Shown: piece after piece, positions 1,459 through 45,887 of the stretch
How positions within the stretch are numbered: position 1 is the first letter of the stretch
How the letters are laid out: the number at the start of each line of letters is the position of its first letter
Virus record (IMG/VR): IMGVR_UViG_3300010275_000216
Direction: 5' to 3' (one strand)
From: a virus
Lineage: Duplodnaviria > Heunggongvirae > Uroviricota > Caudoviricetes
DNA: 46,051 nucleotides
Translations under genes and position numbers: made by a program
Notes under the pieces: model-generated
Database searches by the model: none
What the model was told of the DNA's origin: nothing
The model's input: only the letters and a program-made list of their open reading frames with translations

Positions 1459-2049
1459 ATGTCTCGAATTTATGCTTACTGTCGGGTATCAACTCTGGAA
1501 CAAACAACCAAAAATCAACGTCGGGAAATCGAAAGTGCAGGTTTTAACATCAAATCTCAGCAAATAATTGAAGAACAAATTAGCGGCTCAGCAGCAACCA
1601 GTGAGCGTCCTGGTTTTAACCAGTTGCTTGATCGACTGAAAAGAGGTGATGCATTGATTGTCACAAAACTGGATCGCCTCGGTTGTAATCCAATGGATAT
1701 CAGTAAAACGGTGGAACAACTGACCAAAGCAGGTATCAAAGTGCATTGCTTAGCATTGGGGGGCGTTGACCTGACCAGTCCACCTGGAAAAATGATGATG
1801 CAAGTAATTTCAGCAGTCGCTGAATTTGAGCGAGACCTTTTACTTGAGCGTACTCATTCAGGGATATTAAGAGCACGGGGCGCAGGAAAGCGATTTGGTC
1901 GCCCACCTGTGTTAAATGATGAACAAATACAGAGGGTACTAGAGCAAATTAAGTCAGGTATAAATATAAGTGACATTGCCCAAGAATTCAAAACCTCGCG
2001 GCAAACCATTTTAAGAGCTAAAGCAAAAAATCAGACACCTGATATATAA
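1459..2049 (+). CDS. pin: serine recombinase, DNA invertase (Pin/Hin/Gin family, 196 aa)
   Basis: N-terminal [11 protein letters not shown] catalytic-serine motif, resolvase core, C-terminal HTH; 196 aa as PinQ/PinR; convergent with tfa. Confidence 0.85.
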
Positions 2050-2147
2050 AAATAATCTCGGTGTGAGATTCCTTACGTTTTCCAAGCCCCCCCTTCCTAG
2101 CCTTAAATGGAAAGATACTTCTAATTATAGAATTTATATATCTTACC

Positions 2148-2723
2148 CTACGGTAGGGCTGGCCATTCAATATCCGGTGCAGTTGATGTATCAACACGGT
2201 TCAGCAACACCCGATACTTTTTCCAGGCTTCCAGCAACAAGGTTTCTTTCTCCGTTGCGATCTCCAGATCCACAGCATCCTGAAGCGGCGCTATATGCTC
2301 ACTGGCTACCTGCATCAGGCTGTTTTTTGTTTCTTCCGCCTCCCGGATCCGGAACAGTTTTTCTGCTTCCGTATCCTTCACCCAGGCTGTGCCGTTCCAC
2401 TTCTGAAACTCCCCTTCCGGGGATAACCAGGTGACATTTTCCGGTAATGAGCCGAGTTCAGAAATAAATAACGCGTCGCCGGAAGCCACGTCATAGACCG
2501 TTTTTCCCCGATGGTCTTCAACGAGATGCCACGATGCCTCATCACTGTTGAAAACAGCCACAAAGCCAGCCGGAATATCTGGCGGTGCAATATCGGTACT
2601 GTTTGCAGGCAGACCTGTATGAGGCGGAATATATGCGTCACCTTCACCAATAAATTCATTAGTTCCGGCCAGCAGGTTATAAATTTTTATGGTCCGTGCT
2701 TGTTCACTCATTCTGAATGCCAT
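2148..2723 (-). CDS. tfa: tail fibre assembly protein Tfa
   Basis: N-terminus [38 protein letters not shown] matches my recollection of lambda Tfa along most of its length; start overlaps stf stop. Confidence 0.9.
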
Positions 2724-24722: not shown

Positions 24723-24889
24723 ACCCGCTCCAGAATGTTTTAAACATGCATCTTGCGAACGACTTTAGGCAAACGGTGTTAGTGATGAACAAAAAACAAT
24801 CAAAATCGACACCACAAAAATAAAAATACTGTAATATCAATCTATTACAGTAGTGGTGATGACGGATGAAATTTCAAAAACTAGCCTTT

Positions 24890-27765: not shown

Positions 27766-28789
<1,024 letters not shown>

Positions 28790-28793
<4 letters not shown>

Positions 28794-29101
28794 AGATATT
28801 TATGATGAGGACGCTCGTGCTTATTGGCAGGATTTTCAATCTTAAAGGAGTACTGATGCTGCAGATAAGACTCAACTTTTTCTGACAATTTTTCTGCTAC
28901 TTCCAGGAAGACTTGCCGGACGCTCCTTCTGGCTGCTGCCTCATAAAACTCCAGCGCAGCTCCTTCAACACGGTCCATGGCGACATCCAGGTCAAAAATT
29001 TCACCGTCAAAGCGTTCTTTGTCCTGTAAGGCTACAGTTACCGTAACTTTATTCTCAAAATTACGGACTCCTTTCACAACCAGTTCATAGTCTTGAGTCA
29101 T
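28790..29101 (-). CDS. ydfR: YdfR-like protein (103 aa) between holin and endolysin
   Basis: Same position (holin - ydfR - endolysin) and length as in Qin; overlaps endolysin start (ATGA). Confidence 0.55.
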
Positions 29102-29105
29102 TGGA

Positions 29106-29321
29106 TTACTCTCCTCTCGCAGCCTTACGCCTGTCTTCTTTAATCTTGAAATAAAGATTTGTCAGATACGTCAGCAGGCCAAAAACCAGGCTACCCAGCA
29201 CACCGATTGCAGCCCACTGTGACGGAGTTACTTTATCGAGTAACTGCAATGCCCAGAAACCAGCATTACCCGCCGATGTGCCATAGGCAACACCTGTTGT
29301 TAACTTATCCATTGATTTCAT
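29106..29321 (-). CDS. class II holin / pinholin, S21-like, with dual-start motif MKSMDK
   Basis: [26 protein letters not shown]...[30 protein letters not shown] closely matches phage 21 S as I recall it; GGTGAGG SD; ORF-track start is an upstream extension. Confidence 0.85.
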
Positions 29322-29540
29322 ATCCTCACCCCGATGTACACGGATGGTGCAATATGTTTGAAAAGATCGGAGTCTACGGGGTAGTTTTGACAGCACACGT
29401 TGTTCTCAACGGCGCTAAAAAAACATACACATTAAAAATGTGGGTAATTATTTTGAAAGAAAGTCATATATAAAATAATAATACGAGAAATGTTTTCATA
29501 TTTAGTGTACTGTATACGGCCATTTATACAGGAAAAGCCT

Positions 29541-29711
29541 ATGTCAGAACGTAAAGACTCAAAATCACGCCGTAATTATCTCGTTAAATGTTCCTGCCCA
29601 AACTGCACCCAAGAGTCAGAACACAGTTTTTCAAGAGTACAAAAAGGTGCCCTTTTGATCTGCCCTCATTGCAACAAAGTATTCCAGACAAATCTTAAAG
29701 CTGTAGCCTGA
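29541..29711 (+). CDS. small zinc-ribbon protein (56 aa, CPNC...CPHC)
   Basis: ATG with AGGAAAAG SD; two CxxC pairs. Confidence 0.5.
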   Translation: MSERKDSKSRRNYLVKCSCPNCTQESEHSFSRVQKGALLICPHCNKVFQTNLKAVA

Positions 29712-29775
29712 TTGATTTTATTAGTAACAAGTATTTTTTATATTTTAATAATATATTTAAAGCAGATAATAAAAA

Positions 29776-29791
29776 ACCCGCCTGAGCGGGT
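29776..29791. terminator. bidirectional terminator ACCCGCC-TGA-GCGGGT flanked by A6 and T3
   Basis: Between convergent zinc-ribbon gene and cspB. Confidence 0.55.
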
Positions 29792-30074
29792 TTGAGATTG
29801 TGGTGCTTTTTGTGGGAGTCATCCACTTACGCACTTTGTTTTGCGATGCCAGCAGTTAGCTTCTGCTGTGAAACTATTCATGCAGCAAACCTGCACTTCA
29901 CCACAATGGTTAGCATACTTTTCCTGATTAAGATTTTGCCAAATATGCTGGCCATTGTTTCATGTATTGGACCTCCTTACTTTTTATTAAAGAGATCCAA
30001 TATTCACTACTCTGTCCGTATCTCTACTCAGGCATCAGCCTTCTTCGTTATCGTATACAGACGAGCGATGAATT

Positions 30075-30290
30075 TTAATCAGTAATGATGACATTTACTG
30101 CTGCAGGACCTTTAGCACCACTCTCTATAGAGAAGGTAACCTTTTGACCTTCAAATAAGGTTCGATAATTATCATTCTGAATCGCAGAAAAATGCACAAA
30201 CACATCTTTACTACCATCAACAGGAGAAATAAAGCCGAAACCTTTATCAGCGTTAAACCATTTTACTAAACCAGTCATTTTATTTGACAT
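30075..30290 (-). CDS. cspB: cold shock protein CspB-like (71 aa)
   Basis: [23 protein letters not shown]...; divergent from cspF as in Qin. Confidence 0.8.
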
Positions 30291-30590
30291 TCTACATTCC
30301 TTAACTTGAGCCTTTCGGCATAAATGGTTTGCATAACAGAAACGACTTCGTACTTAATTGGAGAGACTCAAAGAAGGAATAAGTGAATAACACCTGAAAT
30401 GAGAACTGCTTTAGTAAACTACTTCGTATATCGTCTGTTCTTCAAACCGACGCAATCATTAACGCATAGTTGAACATATGAAGCAATGTTTATTTTAGAC
30501 ATCCAGCCATCTTCAACCCCATCAAAAAACTATAGCTTTCTTCAGGAACGTGTGTATAGTGCGCCAAGTTATCAGTATTAAGGAATTTTT

Positions 30591-30803
30591 TTGTCCCGTA
30601 AAATGACAGGGATTGTCAAAACCTTTGACGGCAAAAGCGGCAAGGGTCTTATCACCCCATCCGATGGTCGTATCGATGTCCAGCTTCATGTTTCAGCGCT
30701 CAATCTCCGCGATGCAGAAGAAATTACCACCGGATTACGCGTGGAATTTTGCCGGATAAATGGTCTGCGTGGCCCTTCAGCTGCCAATGTTTACCTTTCA
30801 TGA
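30591..30803 (+). CDS. cspF: cold shock protein CspF-like (70 aa), TTG start
   Basis: [23 protein letters not shown]...; divergent from cspB. Confidence 0.75.
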
Positions 30804-31095
30804 GCTATATTAAAGCTTTAATTTCAGGCCCCATCGGATCACACATGGAGAGTTTTTATGAATAACCCCGTCTGTCTTGATGACTGGTTGATTGGCTTTA
30901 AAAGCTTATGCTGTACTTTGGCCGTAATAGCTCTGCTAATAATATAATAAGCAGACTCATTGTGTTTAGGGACATTGTACTGGAAGAAAACATTTTAAAC
31001 ATCAGGCAAATAACCAAGTCACCAGCTAAATAATAAGTTAACAGACATGAGTCCCGGGATGAGATTCAACATTACCATTGCCCCATTTAAAGCAC

Positions 31096-31119
31096 AAAAC
31101 CCGCTCATCAGCGGGTTTT
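31096..31119 (+). terminator. terminator hairpin AAAACCCGC-TCATCA-GCGGGTTTT about 300 nt downstream of cspF
   Basis: GC stem followed by T-rich tract on plus strand. Confidence 0.5.
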
Positions 31120-31572
31120 CTACTTTTTCTTAACGTCGGGTATACAAAGCCCATCTTTGAAAAAATTTTATCCATATTTTTTGAAAAATGCAAGCATCAC
31201 GTTACCATCTTCATTGAAAAACCTTTATCGTGTTACTTTTATCAATTGCACTTCAGCATAGAGTTATCCCAGACAGCACTTTAAAGACTTCTACATTACA
31301 CACACCTTGTCTCCCCTTCTCGTCATATCTGCAAGACCGATATGCATGACGCAGTACATACGCTGAACTGCTTTATCCATCTGCATATTCTAGTGCTAAA
31401 GCGACTTCAGTAGCAGAAGCAAAATTCTGCTACTGTGCCAAACAGGAGTAAACGTCATTTTATGTAATATTGATTGAGTGGTCATAGTATCACCTCAATA
31501 ACAACTCTCCGCCCTATCATTGAAAGCATATCTGCTATAATTAAAAAACCACTTAACATCAGGACTTCAAAC

Positions 31573-31758
31573 ATGACTTCAAATCAATCTGAAAACGAAA
31601 TAGTTAATACTGTCAAAAAATATGCATCATGTGCTGACGATGCTTTGCAGGGAGGCAAAGAAAACGTTAAAGATAAATTTAGAAATTATCCACTGACTAG
31701 CGTGGTGGTTGCTCTAAGCATAGGGTTAACGCTTGGTTTTATTATTGGCAGAAAATAA
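31573..31758 (+). CDS. small tail-anchored membrane protein, DUF883 (ElaB/YqjD)-like C-terminus
   Basis: C-terminal ...NYPLTSVVVALSIGLTLGFIIGRK resembles the NPW...G..LG.L..R anchor of the ElaB/YqjD family; ATG at 31573. Confidence 0.35.
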   Translation: MTSNQSENEIVNTVKKYASCADDALQGGKENVKDKFRNYPLTSVVVALSIGLTLGFIIGRK

Positions 31759-32918
31759 TCTTAAGCCTCCCATAAGTCGTACACAATCACATCTGCCAAT
31801 TAATGTTCCATTAGTAAAAAACCACCTCCTGTGGAGGTGGTTTAAGGATAGCAACAAAACACAACCTACTTTAAACGGCTATATTCTGCTATATCTAAAT
31901 AATAGGATCTCTTTTATCATCCGGTGAAAAAGGGTTCAATGGTTGCCCCTCATCAGGACGCTCAACGGGCTCATCATCAGGCTTACGGTCATCAAAATCT
32001 GGATGTTCTGACATATTCCACCCTAGTATTTTCATGCAGGAAAGATTATTTACTCTTTCCGGTTGTCTTTTTTATTATCCTTACCCTTACTATCCTCATT
32101 GTTTTTATTCCTGTCATGAGATTTTTCATTTGAATCACTTACATATAATGTATTCATGGGGACTCCAGTTTTTTAACAGCACAATGCTGTATCTGTAATT
32201 ATAGATGCAATTAATCATTATGATATGTATGTTTCATGCACAAATCAGAAACGCATCTAGTGCTTTAATTAATATGGATTTTATTGCTGTAGATTTACAA
32301 AAATTTTCATAATTAACCAGCAATATAAGACAAATATCTCATAACATGAGGAAAATCAAGCTCATTTAAAGCAATTTATAATTTTCATCCTACTGTTTTC
32401 CCTGCACTGCCAACACAAGTTTCATCGCAACACTCTGACAAGACACCTATAAAATCAGTTTCGTTATCACCTTAATTTTCTTCATGGGTAACAAACCGGT
32501 AATACATCGATAGCCAGATTTCCGGCGTAAGCCATTTATTTGCAGCCTGATTGATGCGCGTTACTGTTACCTCTTCCCTGCATCAGGATGGCTTCTCCAG
32601 ATGATATGGTTAATCACACTGGAACATTCACGCATAACCGTTTCCTTCATATCCTGCCGTTTTAGCATGTCTTTTCCCCTTCTTGTTAATATCAATAACT
32701 AACACAAATCTAAAAAAGCCAGCAATGTAAAAAAACTGCATTCACGGCAACCATAATGGTTACCGTTCTGCACAAAGTTTATGTCCACAAAAAAACCACT
32801 CTGCGCGGCTTATTGATATTTTCCACAGGTATGCATATAAGGCTCATCATTGGAAAACTCTTTGCACGTTTCCTTAGAAAATACAATCGTTATGTCGCCA
32901 TCGTTCGGTGAAAATCAT

Positions 32919-33671
32919 TTATCTCGTCACTTTTCTTAATTGCACCTCAGCATATGCTTCTTCCTGCCAGCACTTTGTAACCAGTTTATCAATGACATCT
33001 GCATATCCTTTGTACCACTGATAATCCGTCAGGTCTGGTACCAGCTTCTGGACATGACACCGCGCCAGTGTCGTTGGTAAACGACTAAACCGGTTTCCAT
33101 TGCAACGCCCACAAACCTTATAAACAGGCGTGCTATGAAGCCGGGTTCTTTTTTCATCCAGGACAATACCTTTCCCCTTACACCCTCTGCACGCTGTGCT
33201 GACTTCTCCCTTACCATGGCAATGCTGACATAGTTCCTTCACCCACTCTTCCTTGATAACAGATTCCCCACTTCTGGAGTGTTTCACCACTTCGCGCAAT
33301 ACATTATGAAATCCAGTACCAGCACAATACTCACAGCGAGCCTTACTTGCCGCAGACCTGGAATAATCAGCAAAGGCAAAATTCACAAGGTAAGGGATGA
33401 TCTGTAACCGGATTTCTTCACTCAATTTGTTCAATGTCGGATTATCCATTGCCATCGCGTAATTGAGCAGACCTTCAATCGCAAACTGAGGATCCTGAAC
33501 ACCAACTTTTGCCAGGAATAAGGCAAAACCAAGCGGAGCTTTCGACTGCACCATCCCCTGCGCAGCCATCACATCTGTTATTGTTAAACCACCCGAGCCT
33601 GTCGCCGGTGCGTCATCACTCAATTTTGGAGATTTTGGGGAGTAATATTTTGGTAAAGCTTCAAGGTTCAT
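32919..33671 (-). CDS. quuQ: late-gene antitermination protein Q (250 aa)
   Basis: Length as QuuQ; multiple CxxC zinc-binding motifs; position upstream of lysis region. Confidence 0.75.
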   Translation of the reverse strand: MNLEALPKYYSPKSPKLSDDAPATGSGGLTITDVMAAQGMVQSKAPLGFALFLAKVGVQDPQFAIEGLLNYAMAMDNPTLNKLSEEIRLQIIPYLVNFAFADYSRSAASKARCEYCAGTGFHNVLREVVKHSRSGESVIKEEWVKELCQHCHGKGEVSTACRGCKGKGIVLDEKRTRLHSTPVYKVCGRCNGNRFSRLPTTLARCHVQKLVPDLTDYQWYKGYADVIDKLVTKCWQEEAYAEVQLRKVTR

Positions 33672-33684
33672 GCTCGTTCTCCAC

Positions 33685-34734
33685 TTACGCCAGTACGCCT
33701 ATTGCCAGCGCACGATCGATAAAACGAAATATCAGCTCCAGTTGGGAGCCATACTTCTCTTCAAATGCCACGGTATTCGCATGCAGCTCGTCGTGATGCT
33801 TTCTGCACAAAGGCAACACAAAGAGATCATGTGCTTTGGTTCCCATTCCGCCCTGCCCGTGACCAATCAGATGATGCGGATCGTCGGCTGGCATACCGCA
33901 GCAAGCACACGGCTGTGTCTTAACCCAGCGTGTGTATTTCTCCTTAACCCAACGGTGACGTTTAGGCAGCTTCATGAAAGATTCCGGAGACTCTGGATCA
34001 ACGGTGATGCTTACCACCGTCTTTTCCTGTGATGGGTTTTGTTGCTGGTGGGCGTGAGGCAACGGTGCAAGATTTTTTGTGCGCTGTTTCAATATGCTGG
34101 TGGCGGTCTGCTCTCCCGGTACGATGTCGCTTTCGCGGTACACCGAGCAGTTTTTTTCCGCTGGTAATCCCAGCGAGCGACGTAATACCGCTTCCGGTAG
34201 CGCGTCCGCCACCTGATTGCGGACCGCCCACCAGGATAATTCAGCCAGAGATAATTCACGCTCCTGCGTACCGCTTATTGCGTGACCGATGACGTCAATC
34301 ATCCATGCTGACAGGTTTTGATGAGCAAGTTGCTCGAGTGATTCGGATGTCTGGTCACGCAGCTGGTTGTCGCAGTGCCAGCACAACACCATTGCGCCGG
34401 TACCATAACGGTGAATAACGGTTTCACTGTGATGATAATCGCCGTGTGGCCACTGGCAGGATTTAATATGGCGCAACAGCCAGTCAGACAATGCACCAGC
34501 ACCACCAGCAGCACGAATTACCCGTGCGTTACTGAAAAACGGCAGCAATGTTTTGTCTTCCACCAGCGGCTGGCGAACGGCAGGAACGACCCCGGACGGC
34601 AGATTACGCATGCTTTTCGGTTCCGGCTCCACCAGTACCCGGGTATTGTGGAATACCGGCATGGATTCACGGCCCGGCTTAACGACCACCAGCCCGAGTT
34701 CCGGTACCAGAACAGGTCGAAGTAATACCCGCAC
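33685..34734 (-). CDS. ydfU: DUF968-family protein YdfU-like (349 aa), GTG start
   Basis: Same length and position (just before Q) as ydfU of Qin; C-terminal Cys/His-rich motif CACCG...HHLIGHG...CRKHHDELH. Confidence 0.6.
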   Translation of the reverse strand: MRVLLRPVLVPELGLVVVKPGRESMPVFHNTRVLVEPEPKSMRNLPSGVVPAVRQPLVEDKTLLPFFSNARVIRAAGGAGALSDWLLRHIKSCQWPHGDYHHSETVIHRYGTGAMVLCWHCDNQLRDQTSESLEQLAHQNLSAWMIDVIGHAISGTQERELSLAELSWWAVRNQVADALPEAVLRRSLGLPAEKNCSVYRESDIVPGEQTATSILKQRTKNLAPLPHAHQQQNPSQEKTVVSITVDPESPESFMKLPKRHRWVKEKYTRWVKTQPCACCGMPADDPHHLIGHGQGGMGTKAHDLFVLPLCRKHHDELHANTVAFEEKYGSQLELIFRFIDRALAIGVLA

Positions 34735-37038: not shown

Positions 37039-37341
37039 CTATCGGAAACAGATGTCTAAATCTGGTAATGTCTGCTTTTGATGCAAAGCAGACAACCACG
37101 GCAGCGCACGAAAATCAGCGATAATGTCGGGATTAATAATCGGGTGACGTCCATCACATAGCGAATGTTCCTCTTTCCTGATATCGCTAAATATCGACCA
37201 TTCGTCATTCTTATCGAACCAGAGCATGCGACTGCCACAGCACATGTCGAGAATGGTAGCCGATGTACTCACAGCATCACCTCCCGATAATTCCCCTGAT
37301 AAAACGTCAGAACACGCTGCATAACTTCGCTCTTCCGGCAC
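37039..37341 (-). CDS. doubtful ORF (100 aa, GTG start) overlapping neighbours in other frames; possibly remnant of a frameshifted gene
   Basis: No SD at any candidate start; overlaps 3' end of the 140-aa gene and 5' region of the QueH-like ORF. Confidence 0.2.
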
Positions 37342-40244: not shown

Positions 40245-40820
40245 ATGGATTTCGACACAATCATGGAAAAGGCTTACGAAGAATACTTCGAAGGCCTTGC
40301 CGAAGGCGAAGAAGCTCTCAGCTTCAGTGAGTTTAAACAGGCACTCAGAATAAGAATGTGCTCTCACAATGACGCAGAGCACAAATATGAGAAGCAAAAT
40401 CAGACCGCAGAAAATTTTGTTCTGGAACCCGGAGAAACGCTTTTCAAAATTCCCGTTACGTGCCCCATTTGCGGTTTTACATCAGAAGAACTTGACGACT
40501 CCTGTAACAATCAGGAAACAACCAAGTATGTCGAAGATGATACCGAGTGCGCACGAAGAACGATTATATCCACGAGTCCAAACTCCAGGACCAATAAATC
40601 TCACTTTGAGAGGGTGATTAATCCACTCCCCCAAACCAATAAAAAAGATGCCGGAGGACAAAAAACCCAATGGAACAACGGGATATCTGTCAAAAAAAGA
40701 CGTTCCATTAAAGACAAACAACGCAGCGCCAACAACTGTAAGCGCTTTATTCCAGTAATCAATTTTCATGTTCTTAAGCGGATTTATTGGTGGTTGCGAC
40801 ATTGCTTAATGAATCCTTAA
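40245..40820 (+). CDS. YdfB/YdfC-region protein as a single 191-aa ORF
   Basis: Starts MDFDTIMEKAYEEYFEGLAEGEE (ydfB-like) and continues uninterrupted; contains CPICGF. Confidence 0.5.
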   Translation: MDFDTIMEKAYEEYFEGLAEGEEALSFSEFKQALRIRMCSHNDAEHKYEKQNQTAENFVLEPGETLFKIPVTCPICGFTSEELDDSCNNQETTKYVEDDTECARRTIISTSPNSRTNKSHFERVINPLPQTNKKDAGGQKTQWNNGISVKKRRSIKDKQRSANNCKRFIPVINFHVLKRIYWWLRHCLMNP

Positions 40821-41079
40821 AACTGTGGTGATTTTAAGGATACCACCTCGCCTGACGTGGTTAAAAGCAGGCACACAACACGAAAGCGCACGGCGAAGTT
40901 CGTCTCACTGTACGGTGTCGTTAAATTTAATTCGACCGTGCGCTTCCGGTTGTGGCAACCCGCGAAATGGCGCGGCGGTAAGTATGGCGGGGTTATTCCT
41001 TCCCCGTAGAGGACACCGAGTTGTCAGGTTGACCATACGCTTAAGTGACAACCCCGCTGCAACGCCCTCTGTTATCAAT

Positions 41080-44606: not shown

Positions 44607-45887
44607 ATGAAATATCCGACAGGCGTGGAAAACCATGGAGGGAAATTACGTATCTGGTTTGTTTATAAAGGCGTAAGAGTCAGGGAAAATCTGGGGGTTC
44701 CTGACACAGCAAAAAACAGGCGCGTTGCAGGTGAACTACGCTCCTCTGTTTGTTACGCAATAAAAACTGGTGTTTTCGACTATGCAAAACAGTTTCCCTC
44801 CTCACGCAATCTGGAAAAATTTGGTGAGGCCCGACAAGATTTAACCATAAAAGAACTGGCTGAAAAATTTCTGGCACTGAAAGAAACTGAAGTCGCCAAA
44901 ACATCACTCAACACATACCGTGCCGTCATCAAAAATATCCTGAGCATAATCGGTGAAAAAAATCTTGCCTCATCGATTAATAAAGAAAAATTACTGGAGG
45001 TTCGTAAAGAGCTACTGACTGGATACCAGATCCCCAAAAGTAACTATATTGTTACACAACCAGGGAGATCGGCTGTAACTGTAAATAATTACATGACAAA
45101 TCTTAACGCCGTGTTCCAGTTTGGTGTTGATAACGGTTACCTGCCAGATAATCCGTTTAAGGGGATCTCGCCATTAAAGGAATCAAGAACCATTCCGGAT
45201 CCTCTTTCGCGGGAGGAATTTATCCGTCTTATCGATGCGTGCAGAAATCAGCAAGCAAAAAATTTATGGTGTGTTTCTGTTTATACTGGCGTTCGCCCTG
45301 GTGAGCTGTGTGCACTTGGATGGGAGGACATAGATCTGAAAAATGGAACAATGATGATCAGGAGAAATTTAGCAAAAGACCGTTTCACGGTACCAAAAAC
45401 ACAGGCGGGAACCAATCGGGTCATTCATCTTATTAAGCCAGCAATCGACGCTCTCCGGAGTCAGATGACATTAACGAGACTGAGCAAAGAGCATATCATT
45501 GATGTTCACCTCAGAGAGTATGGCAGAACAGAAAAACAAAAATGCACCTTTGTTTTTCAACCTGAAGTGTCAGCGAGAGTAAAAAATTATGGTGACCATT
45601 TTACCGTTGACTCAATAAGGCAGATGTGGGACGCAGCGATAAAACGTGCCGGACTCCGCCATCGAAAATCATATCAGTCGAGACATACTTATGCCTGCTG
45701 GTCGCTGACAGCTGGTGCTAACCCGGCATTTATAGCAAACCAGATGGGCCATGCAGATGCGCAAATGGTATTTCAGGTATACGGAAAATGGATGTCTGAA
45801 AACAATAATGCACAGGTAGCTTTGTTAAATACACAGTTAAGCGAGTTTGCCCCAACCATGCCCCATAACGAAGCAATGAAAAATTAA
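44607..45887 (+). CDS. int: tyrosine recombinase / phage integrase
   Basis: C-terminal catalytic region with R...HxxR...Y (SRHTYACW, GHAD...VYGKW); ATG 44607 with GAGAGAAG SD; outermost gene, transcribed toward window end. Confidence 0.85.
   Translation: MKYPTGVENHGGKLRIWFVYKGVRVRENLGVPDTAKNRRVAGELRSSVCYAIKTGVFDYAKQFPSSRNLEKFGEARQDLTIKELAEKFLALKETEVAKTSLNTYRAVIKNILSIIGEKNLASSINKEKLLEVRKELLTGYQIPKSNYIVTQPGRSAVTVNNYMTNLNAVFQFGVDNGYLPDNPFKGISPLKESRTIPDPLSREEFIRLIDACRNQQAKNLWCVSVYTGVRPGELCALGWEDIDLKNGTMMIRRNLAKDRFTVPKTQAGTNRVIHLIKPAIDALRSQMTLTRLSKEHIIDVHLREYGRTEKQKCTFVFQPEVSARVKNYGDHFTVDSIRQMWDAAIKRAGLRHRKSYQSRHTYACWSLTAGANPAFIANQMGHADAQMVFQVYGKWMSENNNAQVALLNTQLSEFAPTMPHNEAMKN

Follow-up and report, generated by a model that had tools for sequence, protein, structure and literature searches.

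Duplicated lambda-type late control modules at the ends of a probable mosaic insert downstream of Q in an mEp460/Qin-like phage

The late control cassette of lambda-type phages has been defined as comprising Q, the promoter pR', the Q-binding element (QBE), the pause element (SDPE) and a terminator (PMC9388147). The lambda pause element reads AACGAT at +1 to +6, followed by GGG (PMC4005639), pR' is constitutively active and gives short terminated RNAs in lysogens (PMC7547250), and it is established lambda biology that Q-modified polymerase ignores terminators (PMC9388147).

Here we examine the segment that follows Q (positions 31120-32918) in a stretch of 46,051 nt of viral DNA, hereafter the window, which is an mEp460/Qin-like lambdoid phage. 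We consider it probable that this segment represents ordinary lambdoid mosaicism with a moron in it, rather than a novel type of control region.

Two late modules at the ends of an insert

The Q gene and the two copies of the late module that we discuss, with the elements of the intact copy, are as follows.
32919..33671, minus strand: Q antiterminator gene, 250 aa (PF03589, E=4e-50; PF00684, 34.9 bits), whose stop codon borders the segment
32793..32886, minus strand: copy A, a degenerate relic of pR', pause element and tR' that adjoins Q and can be aligned with its counterparts in SfV, K-12 and lambda
31096..31193, minus strand: copy B, an intact lambda-type late module, 99% identical to the module right after quuQ in K-12
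31193-88, minus strand: copy B -35, TTGCAT
31187-71, minus strand: copy B 17-nt spacer, the presumed Q-binding element
31170-65, minus strand: copy B -10, TAAAAT
31158-50, minus strand: copy B pause element, AAAGAT-GGG, with the predicted start at 31158
31119-31096, minus strand: copy B terminator tR', 10-bp stem, -23.9 kcal/mol, z -9

The antiterminator is a lambda-family Q (PF03589) and is encoded immediately upstream, as in lambda-type late cassettes. It is 41% identical to lambda Q over a full-length alignment, 93% to K-12 QuuQ and 97% to SfV Q, and differs from lambda Q by an extra 47-aa DnaJ-type zinc-finger segment, inserted with the pattern CXXCXGXG.

Ten comparison copies of the module, from nine other loci, share a common pattern of TTGCAT, an invariant 17-nt spacer, TAA(A/G)AT, 6 nt, AA(N)GAT-GGGC and a strong terminator; the -35 and the spacer are identical in 10/10, and the -10 varies at one position only (TAAAAT/TAAGAT). 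Copy B fits this pattern, with which lambda aligns too, and its presumed binding spacer, invariant across the ten comparison copies, matches lambda at 11/17 positions. At the sequence level, it has the -35 and -10 hexamers of a sigma70 promoter 17 bp apart and downstream of Q, a -10-like hexamer at +1 to +6 that keeps A2 and T6 and precedes GGG, as in sigma-dependent pausing, and an intrinsic terminator shortly downstream of the promoter. The composite late-module pattern matches twice in the window, against 0.02 matches expected, and the lysis genes lie on the same strand, downstream of copy B. Copy B would thus be the working late promoter, a real lambda-type promoter that appears intact at the far end of the insert described below.

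The original prediction had expected the late promoter in this segment, correctly, as the late control region is present together with a diverged copy of itself, but had found no recognisable lambda pR', which is wrong: the segment or its edge holds two lambda-like modules, both of which can be aligned with lambda pR' as far as the AACGAT-GGG pause element. Its alternative of a diverged late control region describes copy A and misses the intact copy B, 1.7 kb away. A generic scan for promoters and terminators recovered two strong terminators and the weak hairpin of copy A and flagged neither copy of pR'. Promoter-like sites in this generic sigma70 scan were no commoner than in shuffled sequences (11 versus 11.3), with nothing at copy A, and copy B went unflagged because its TTGCAT -35 scores only 3 of 6.

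The layout of copy B is that of pR', with -35, 17-bp spacer, -10, 6 nt, pause hexamer plus GGG and terminator in the same order (PMC4005639, PMC9388147). It differs from lambda in the -35 (TTGCAT) and the pause hexamer (AAAGAT), and in lying 1.7 kb from its Q gene, with an apparently dead duplicate before it.

This distance is due to positions 31194-32886, an insertion of 1,693 nt relative to K-12 Qin and roughly 1,300 other E. coli genomes, in which the Q stop falls at the equivalent of 31225 and module B follows directly; the empty site is shown by K-12 and SCU-101. The insert is carried by 40 of 5,426 E. coli genomes and by two deposited phage records, HannyBb and PhiR63_1, and is flanked by an imperfect direct repeat of 73 nt, D1 (31210-31282 versus 32904-32976, 77% identity). 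Its junctions form a reciprocal mosaic at the -35 hexamer, as seen in identities measured against an empty-site genome (L061).
Copy A: Q 3' end 100%, post-stop segment 84%, module 63.5%
Copy B: Q 3' end 75%, post-stop segment 74%, module 95.6%

From module B leftwards (ynfS, cspF, cspB, holin) the sequence is 94-99% identical to Qin of K-12, and Q, copy A and the Ren-like gene after it match the arrangement Q - pR' - tR' - orf47 of SfV and mEp460. Whereas Qin, SfV and mEp460 have one module directly after Q, there are two here with 1.7 kb between them, and the SfV-like part is only about 75% identical to SfV and mEp460 and degenerate. Searches for a parental P2-type phage found none. A conserved gene spanning the region in homologues would have refuted the original prediction, but no single gene does so; most homologous prophages lack the region.

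Gene debris, a hairpin and a three-gene cassette

The description of the segment as AT-rich with few credible open reading frames (ORFs) is confirmed: its GC content of 36.6% is below the 48.9% of the window and the 46% of Q, a value as low being reached in only 10 of 443 sliding 1.8-kb windows, and its ORFs are all short. The longest, of 94 aa with a TTG start (31474-31758), contains a true gene of 61 aa (TA61). Unannotated small proteins or RNAs had been suggested, and the proteins are borne out, with three short genes that have homologues and pS >> pN, of which PGAP annotates just one (TA61). The RNAs are not: the segment has no Rfam family match in the covariance search for known sRNAs (Rfam 15; 28500-34000, E<=1), its sole match being a chance-level snoRNA (24 bits versus 50, E=0.44). 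The only real match of that search lies outside the segment, at 30028-30451, and is the cspA-type thermoregulator of cspB; a 29-aa ORF that likewise lies beyond the segment matches YnfS. When the small ORFs were compared with Pfam, NCBIfam, PHROGs and PADLOC, phrog_11629 (TA61) was the only strong match, and literature searches on quuQ, ydfT, PhiR63_1 and WP_000203370 returned nothing relevant.

Much of the insert consists of gene fragments, one of which contains a perfect hairpin.
32387..32668, minus strand: Ren-like (SfV orf47-like) winged-helix pseudogene, with a conserved start (MLKRQDM) followed by frameshifts and stops
31296..31485, minus strand: frameshifted pseudogene made of some 63 codons from the 5' end of a Rha/Bro-N-type antirepressor gene, with 1-nt indels in the alignment
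31225..31282, minus strand: 18-codon 3'-terminal remnant of a second, diverged Q gene, joined to the Rha fragment and part of direct repeat D1
31408..31435, no strand: perfect 11-bp hairpin inside the Rha pseudogene

The DNA of the Ren-like pseudogene is about 75% identical to the post-Q regions of SfV, mEp460 and Stx2c phage and about 74% identical to ren; six-frame translation splits the Ren motifs over two frames with stops, and related contigs are polymorphic for a 32-bp deletion (32512-32543). The Rha fragment shares 79% DNA identity with the first 183 nt of the PhiR26_1 Rha gene and with P22AR-domain genes, and the second Q remnant, seen by tblastn as KCCLG*LYAEVQLIKVTR, is about 75% identical to Q 3' ends.

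Between these fragments lies a cassette of three small genes in two convergent units.
31533..31541, plus strand: predicted extended -10 promoter of TA61, TGcTATAAT
31561-31564, plus strand: Shine-Dalgarno (SD) site of TA61, AGGA, read by eye
31573..31758, plus strand: TA61, gene for a 61-aa tail-anchored membrane protein (PGAP WP_000203370.1; phrog_11629, E=5e-47)
31819..31843, both strands: bidirectional intrinsic terminator between the convergent units, with an 11-bp GC-rich perfect stem and a minus-strand T6 run
31895..32014, minus strand: P39, gene for a 39-aa acidic, proline-rich protein (MSEHPDFDD...PDDKRD), with a homologue in locus L011
32050..32157, minus strand: P35, gene for a 35-aa Lys/Asn/Asp-rich hydrophilic protein, with tblastn homologues in loci L011, L012 and L034
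32158..32210, minus strand: putative promoter and leader of the P35/P39 operon
32203-32198, minus strand: putative -10 of the operon, TATAAT
32176-32190, minus strand: palindrome in the operon leader, ACAGCA-N3-TGCTGT
32166-32163, minus strand: putative SD site of the operon, GGAG

TA61 has an N-terminal hydrophilic helix and a C-terminal transmembrane (TM) segment ending in ...LGFIIGRK, and its AF2 model comprises helices at 3-38 and 40-60. An exhaustive HMMER search found homologues of 64-95 aa (36-57% identity) in Enterobacter, Leclercia, Atlantibacter and Silvania, whereas a word-indexed protein search returned TA61 alone; three long repetitive proteins in the HMMER list (P0003, P0006, P0008) were discarded as compositional matches. 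P35, which gene callers predict in both phage records, has homologues in the corresponding place in L011, L012 and L034 (tblastn, 1.5e-4 to 2e-5), and P39, which occurs in only 6 clusters among 5.8 billion proteins, is 59% identical to a 45-aa L011 protein, with a 6-codon in-frame indel and a dN/dS of about 0.34. In all three genes pS exceeds pN (0.75-0.84 versus 0.32-0.41 for TA61; 1.0 versus 0.39 for P35), and for P35 and P39 the comparisons, drawn from two lineages only, are consistent with coding, though thin.

The same three-gene layout occurs in L011, L012 and L034 at another prophage position, between the lysis genes and Nu1. Equivalents of the TA61 promoter and SD site, TGCTATGAT and CAGGAG, are kept upstream of the TA61 homologues of L011 and L034, as are the promoter and leader elements of the operon, the flanks not being conserved. 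For the bidirectional terminator the folding energy is -20.5 kcal/mol (minus strand) or -17.8 (plus strand), and L011 has an analogous hairpin at the same position. Inspected by eye, the palindrome near the P35 promoter was considered as a LexA box and the idea dropped (the right half-site is not CAG), and a type I toxin-antitoxin reading of TA61 was dropped for want of evidence of an overlapping antisense RNA and in view of a largely hydrophilic protein. PADLOC defence models had no match at E<=1 for TA61, P39, P35 or P0007, and a 65-aa 'NEWEDEGGA' protein that accompanies TA61 homologues elsewhere is absent from the window.

Morons, in the sense of Hendrix and colleagues, are autonomous promoter-gene-terminator units. 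Like lambda bor and lom, the cassette has promoter-like sites and a predicted strong terminator of its own, is AT-rich relative to its flanks (36.9% GC versus 48.9% for the window), is present in some phages while the same site is empty in close relatives, and stands at a different position in another prophage. Its putative control signals (the extended -10, the TATAAT and the SD sites) are kept in L011 and L034. Ayreon offers a comparable case, a lipoprotein moron between duplicated tR' copies. The cassette differs from these morons in that its three genes are very small and form two convergent units, and in having come with pseudogene debris, not by clean insertion. In the lysogen its own promoters probably drive its expression without any need of Q, and a membrane or stress-related function in lysogenic conversion would be a guess.

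A more ambitious reading sees an undescribed, lysogen-expressed module that is driven by its own promoters, moves between lambdoid prophages of the Enterobacteriaceae and confers a membrane or stress phenotype or phage exclusion, the hairpin again being a quasi-palindrome perfected by template switching; we hold this to be rather unlikely. TA61 would then be DUF883-like, and P35 and P39 highly charged and probably disordered. The resemblance to the DUF883 proteins ElaB, YqjD and YgaM, which are tail-anchored in the inner membrane, lies in the hydrophilic helix, the C-terminal TM segment and the ...LGF..GR+ end, and all four TA61 family members give weak DUF883_C matches (best E=0.0048). Against it, TA61 is much shorter, lacks any match to the N-terminal DUF883 domain and scores below the Pfam gathering score (12.3 bits versus 27), so that membership is not established.

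The perfect inverted repeat of the original prediction, AGTAGCAGAA-GCAAAA-TTCTGCTACT, is present, at 31409-31434, 2 nt from the coordinates first given (31407-31432). It is no part of the late control region, falling instead inside the frameshifted Rha fragment, and has no T-run on either strand, on which ground it was rejected as an intrinsic terminator. Its predicted RNA fold has an energy of -18.2 kcal/mol (z -4.5) for the plus strand and -18.7 (z -3.3) for the minus strand. Although it was picked post hoc, it is unlikely to be a chance match, because a first-order Markov model expects 0.03 perfect 10-bp hairpins (loop 3-10) in the segment; across the whole window the same model expects 0.38, and seven distinct ones are seen. 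A mobile or repeated element was also rejected, the arm pattern, with any loop, occurring only in 15 IMG/VR contigs that have the same insert.

Quasi-palindromes can be corrected through template switching, a known source of mutation that needs no selection to give such a pattern. At the corresponding site three intact Rha genes have only 8/11 pairs and a bulge, and here three substitutions and a 1-nt deletion complete the stem (11/11). The hairpin is most likely a by-product of this kind, a quasi-palindrome in the Rha pseudogene perfected after coding constraint was lost. It could instead be a selected element (one that stabilises RNA or directs its processing, a palindrome bound by a protein, or a barrier that insulates the TA61 promoter), as all four arm changes raise pairing, which is very unlikely under drift, the hairpin is unchanged in insert variants of 92-97% identity, and the fold is stable on both strands. 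It is, however, found in this one element only and has no equivalent upstream of the homologous L011 and L034 cassettes; with neither a T-run nor an Rfam match, and with template switching accounting for the same arm changes, we regard selection as improbable.

The module copy next to Q

Copy A holds the place where a late promoter would be looked for, and its elements are as follows.
32886-81, minus strand: -35, TTGTAT, followed by a 17-nt spacer
32863-58, minus strand: -10, AAAGAG
32851-43, minus strand: pause element, AATGAT-GAG
32811-32793, minus strand: weak terminator hairpin, -8.5 kcal/mol, z -0.7

Copy A deviates in every otherwise invariant element. The combination TTGTAT-17-AAAGAG lacks the hexamers of a sigma70 promoter, the spacer matches at 8/17 positions, and the hairpin does not amount to an intrinsic terminator. 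A search for phages with copy A as the sole late module, or with an intact -10, returned only the same insert-bearing contigs, and conservation says little about copy A because all insert carriers are at least 92% identical there. Judged by these elements copy A looks dead, though it could have residual activity or be recognised by an unseen route.

Copy A might nevertheless be a real, diverged late promoter, with the 1.7 kb as a late-operon leader and the small genes as Q-dependent late genes. It sits at the canonical place, roughly 35 nt after the Q stop, keeps the register -35/17/-10/6/pause element, retains A2 and T6 in AATGAT, and has P35 and P39 on the late strand. Yet its -10 lacks both T-12 and T-7, its spacer departs from one that is invariant in ten comparison copies whose loci encode the same Q type, GGG has become GAG, its terminator folds no better than shuffled sequence does, what follows just downstream is a pseudogene polymorphic for an indel, and a fully canonical module follows 1.7 kb downstream; we consider this reading very improbable.

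The same position, register and retained bases could also be read as those of the first of two tandem Q-responsive promoters. The insert would then owe its late transcription to A, and the lysis and structural genes theirs to both A and B, as transcription from A would run through B. The defects in the -10, spacer, GGG and terminator weigh against this as well, and there is no sign of selection keeping A, so that we give it very little credence. That the whole insert is non-functional junk and its three ORFs unexpressed chance occurrences in AT-rich DNA is hardly likely either: clear pseudogenes flank and intersperse it, the ORFs are very short (P35 and P39 of low complexity), Pfam, NCBIfam and PADLOC families are all sub-threshold and the insert is rare, but all three ORFs recur in the same layout in an Enterobacter-type prophage at about 60-65% DNA identity (by eye), with reading frames, in-frame indels, SD sites and -10 motifs conserved and pS >> pN, and TA61 has homologues in four other genera.

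Proposed history and late regulation

Under the reading that we prefer, mosaicism with a moron, the insert would have arisen by homologous recombination within the segment spanning the Q 3' end and pR', with a diverged relative, followed by deletions. This reconstruction, which we infer from the junctions, would have left two copies of that segment, A next to Q and dead, B at the far end and working. The sequence between them shows decaying fragments (the Ren-like pseudogene, the Rha 5' fragment and the Q 3' remnant) and one functional-looking moron, in which TA61, with its extended -10, converges on the operon that encodes P35 (35 aa, basic/polar) and P39 (39 aa, acidic and proline-rich), with the bidirectional terminator separating the two units.

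By analogy with lambda, RNA polymerase would start at about 31158 and pause, in a sigma70-dependent manner, at AAAGAT-GGG. Without Q it would stop at the terminator at 31119-31096 and release an RNA of about 65 nt, whereas the 6S RNA of lambda has 194 nt. Q, supplied in trans from its gene 1.7 kb upstream, would bind the spacer between -35 and -10 and render the paused polymerase terminator-resistant, so that cspB, holin, lysozyme and structural genes are transcribed. The short RNA predicted from module B would resemble StxS and lambda 6S RNA in being constitutive and in ending at tR' (PMC7547250), and differs from both in having neither sequence similarity to them nor an Rfam match.

For annotation, the value of the locus is that the working late promoter in this phage group would lie 1.7 kb from Q, behind a dead duplicate. 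Predictions of pR' and qut, and Stx-style analyses of the 'pR' region', would choose the wrong site where they assume adjacency to Q. The three-gene cassette is a rare, uncharacterised family with two known lineages, and nothing here shows anything unusual in what it does. The locus would also serve as a clean example of how lambdoid mosaics may form through recombination inside the conserved segment of the Q end and pR', with morons arriving together with debris.

A mosaic insert between Q and the late genes

The window spans a complete mEp460/Qin-type lambdoid genome whose late genes lie on the minus strand; phage HannyBb matches 79–81% of it at 96.5–98.6% identity, and its structural half is covered by mEp460 relatives. 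The minus-strand gene order is ydfU, Q (32919–33671), the segment analysed here (31120–32918), ynfS and cspF (plus strand), cspB, holin and lysozyme, which near the segment agrees with the annotated chromosome of Escherichia coli 2012C-4221. As originally predicted, the segment is AT-rich and poor in credible open reading frames (ORFs): its GC content is 36.6% compared to 48.9% for the window, within the lowest 2% of 1.8-kb windows, and its ORFs are all short.

Searching 5,426 complete E. coli genomes, we found the whole segment in only 40, and roughly 1,300 others, K-12 among them, match its left 483 nt only. In these, the match already enters the 3′ end of ydfT/quuQ, and the stop codon of K-12 Q aligns with position 31225 of the window. 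An imperfect 73-nt direct repeat (31210–31282 and 32904–32976, 77% identity) comprises the final 58 nt of Q plus 15 nt; its left copy translates as KCCLG*LYAEVQLIKVTR and is a dead 18-codon Q remnant. HannyBb and PhiR63_1, deposited phage genomes with named hosts, have the same arrangement at 99.6–99.7% identity, which suggests, but does not prove, that it is compatible with lytic growth.

A late-promoter module (pR′, pause element and tR′) is present as copy A, adjoining Q, and copy B, at the far end of the insert, and we compared both with the empty-site genome SCU-101. On the copy A side, the Q 3′ end is 100% identical, the 31-nt post-stop segment 84% and the module 63.5%; on the copy B side, these values are 75%, 74% and 95.6%. 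From these reciprocal identities, the foreign DNA corresponds to 32886..31194 (1,693 nt), and the switch in identity falls close to the −35 hexamer in each copy. Read on the minus strand from Q, the insert contains:

32886–32793, minus: copy A of the module, a putative relic (first item)
32668–32387, minus: Ren-like gene, counterpart of SfV orf47, first 7 codons conserved
32157–32050, minus: P35 ORF (35 aa), Lys/Asn/Asp-rich
32014–31895, minus: P39 ORF (39 aa), acidic, Pro-rich
31843–31819, minus: strong terminator with T6, downstream of P35/P39
31573–31758, plus: TA61 (61 aa), convergent with P35/P39, extended −10 TGcTATAAT, Shine–Dalgarno (SD) AGGA
31485–31296, minus: first ~63 codons of a Rha/Bro-N antirepressor, 79% identity to intact genes, 1-nt indels
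Q remnant (last item)

Upstream of P35/P39 lie TATAAT, a conserved ACAGCA-N3-TGCTGT palindrome and SD sites. The Ren-like gene is a pseudogene: beyond codon 7, Ren motifs are scattered over two frames with stops, and a 32-bp deletion is polymorphic among insert carriers.

The reciprocal pattern would follow from one homologous crossover with a diverged relative in circular or tandem form. Deletions would have come later, one of them joining the first ~63 Rha codons to the last 18 codons of the relative's Q. No parent of the foreign DNA was found in phage or IMG/VR collections. A simpler case of this kind is seen in phage Ayreon: at 1646–2427 (minus strand) of its locus L005, a 141-aa lipoprotein-like moron separates a normal pR′–tR′ module from a second, nearly identical tR′ hairpin. 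Late-terminator duplication around inserted genes therefore recurs in the phage group of Ayreon and the window.

Two copies of the late-promoter module

Q is a lambda-family antiterminator (PF03589, E = 4e-50), 41% identical to lambda Q over its full length. Residues about 113–159 form a 47-aa insertion relative to lambda Q, an additional zinc-finger segment with DnaJ-type CXXCXGXG motifs that is also found in K-12 QuuQ and SfV Q; Q passes the Pfam threshold for the DnaJ central domain (34.9 versus 32.7 bits). We aligned the minus-strand sequence that follows each Q end to those of K-12, SfV, Ayreon and lambda, and then took the same register from more loci, for a total of 10 comparison copies drawn from 9 loci. 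In lambda, AACGAT at +1 to +6 is a sigma70-dependent pause element with a discriminator-like GGG (PMC4005639), and the stretch separating the −35 and −10 hexamers holds the Q-binding element (PMC9388147, PMC6266700).

Table. Elements of the late-promoter module (element: comparison copies; lambda; copy B; copy A)
Coordinates, minus strand: –; –; 31193–31096; 32886–32793
−35: TTGCAT; TTGACT; TTGCAT; TTGTAT
17-nt spacer: TTTTCAAAAAATATGGA, invariant; TATTGAATAAAATTGGG; identical to family; 8/17 match
−10: TAA(A/G)AT; TAAATT; TAAAAT; AAAGAG
Pause hexamer + next 3 nt: AA(C/A/T)GAT + GGG; AACGAT + GGG; AAAGAT + GGG; AATGAT + GAG
Terminator: strong, GC-rich; not aligned; −23.9 kcal/mol, z −9; −8.5 kcal/mol, z −0.7

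Copy B and the K-12 module share 99% identity, and AAAGAG in copy A is without the two most conserved −10 bases. The two copies are the sole window matches to the composite pattern TTGYAT-N28-CAANGATG, against 0.02 expected. Across the 92–97% insert variants, copy B varies yet retains functional forms (TAAGAT, AATGAT), and the degenerate state of copy A is unchanged. As copy B keeps the family elements and copy A is degenerate, we infer from sequence that B is the working pR′/qut/tR′ and A a relic. The claim that the segment carries no recognisable lambda pR′ did not hold: two lambda-like modules lie in it or at its edge, and copy B fits the comparison copies. A lambda-like late control region does exist, placed at the distal end of the insert rather than next to Q.

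By analogy with lambda and Stx phages, in which pR′ fires constitutively (PMC7547250), pR′ of copy B would fire constitutively in the lysogen, with transcription stopping at 31119–31096 to leave an RNA of roughly 65 nt; the cassette genes (TA61, P35 and P39) would be read from their own predicted promoters, insulated by the bidirectional terminator. On induction, Q made from the early rightward transcript would act in trans on the copy B module, which lies 1.7 kb away from the Q gene, and free polymerase paused at AAAGAT-GGG. The Q-modified polymerase would then read past tR′ and later terminators (for example, 29793–29770) into the lysis and morphogenesis genes.

The transcribed part of copy B (31120–31170) differs by 13–14% from insert carriers L024, L025 and L027, compared to about 1–2% in the terminator, Q remnant and rest of the insert, a contrast that points to a distinct patch of recombination within the short pR′–tR′ transcript. 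A 29-aa ORF (30858–30947, plus strand), running antisense to late transcription, lies between cspF and the copy B tR′ and gives a full-length match to Pfam YnfS (E = 4.7e-23). The cspB gene (30075–30290) and its upstream leader match, at 30028–30451 (minus strand), the Rfam cspA thermoregulator RF01766 over its full length (158.9 bits, E = 1.4e-42), so the phage-borne cspB probably keeps the cold-sensing mRNA structure. Downstream of cspB and ahead of the holin gene lies a strong terminator-like hairpin, AAACCCGCTCAGGCGGGTTTTTT (29770–29793, minus strand), with a weak Trp-leader Rfam match, through which late transcription must read.

A perfected quasi-palindrome in the Rha fragment

The perfect hairpin reported at the outset, AGTAGCAGAA/GCAAAA/TTCTGCTACT, is present at 31409–31434, 2 nt from where it had been placed, and its stem lengthens to 11 bp at 31408–31435 (about −18 kcal/mol on both strands; 0.03 such hairpins expected in the segment from Markov simulations). 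It lies entirely within the Rha pseudogene, at a site that reads CACAATAACAGAATTTGGCTTACTGCCACTGAAG in three intact Rha genes (8/11 pairs plus a bulge) and CACAGTAGCAGAATTTTGCTT-CTGCTACTGAAG in the window (11/11 pairs). Three substitutions and a 1-nt deletion, also a frameshift, separate the two, and every change improves pairing; divergence around the hairpin equals that elsewhere in the Rha fragment.

Correction of quasi-palindromes by template switching is a known mutational route, and it explains the perfected stem without need for function. Selection may nonetheless have played a part. The hairpin is found in this element only and is missing from the homologous cassette at other loci. Random drift is very unlikely to have produced the perfect stem, and a terminator is ruled out as it is without a T-run. 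In total, the window has seven distinct perfect hairpins with a stem of at least 10 bp, against 0.38 expected; four of these lie elsewhere, at 24827–24852, 37069–37094, 40813–40841 and 45531–45558.

A rare small-protein cassette

TA61 corresponds to the PGAP protein WP_000203370.1 and matches phrog_11629. A word-indexed protein search with it returned only itself, and an exhaustive HMMER search found relatives of 64–95 aa at 36–50% identity that keep the pattern ..SENE..YA..DDAL..K.K..P.T....LGF..GR+. When genomes were scanned, relatives turned up in Leclercia, Atlantibacter, Silvania and Enterobacter. In the GCA_033865815.1 lambdoid prophage and Enterobacter wuhouensis, the TA61 homologue lies between the lysis genes and Nu1, again convergent with P39 and P35 homologues; the P39 homologue there has 59% identity and a 6-codon in-frame indel. 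The SD and −10 motifs of the cassette are also conserved in homologous loci, and pS greatly exceeds pN in all three genes (TA61, 0.75–0.84 versus 0.32–0.41; P39, 0.50 versus 0.24; P35, 1.0 versus 0.39). From these relatives, the convergent arrangement, the conserved motifs and the pS excess, we conclude that TA61, P35 and P39 form a real, uncharacterised and rare moron cassette. P39 occurs in 6 clusters among 5.8 billion proteins. The AF2 model of TA61 has a long helix followed by a transmembrane helix; its DUF883_C matches are below threshold, and no NCBIfam or PADLOC model matches the cassette proteins.

The Leclercia homologue of TA61 belongs to an islet that is a prophage remnant and also contains part of an integrase gene and genes resembling cspB and cspF. 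In Leclercia tamurae (L029, 3656–7293), this islet follows arsB–arsC and a truncated phage integrase, carries the TA61 homologue with cspB-like, cspF-like and YnfU-like genes, and resembles what is left of a degraded Qin-type prophage, here in a different genus. A 62–65-aa protein with the motif QEEW..S.NEWEDEGGA adjoins TA61 homologues in two lineages (minus strand; 4939–5136 in L011, which has the Enterobacter-type cassette, 307–495 in comparison locus L010 and 4591–4779 in L029); it is missing from the window and found no family match.

The observation behind the original prediction stands, but what explains it is ordinary: a mosaic insert that carries debris of genes and a single small moron. 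Only two items are mildly novel, namely the uncharacterised cassette of three small-protein genes and the quasi-palindrome that became perfect.
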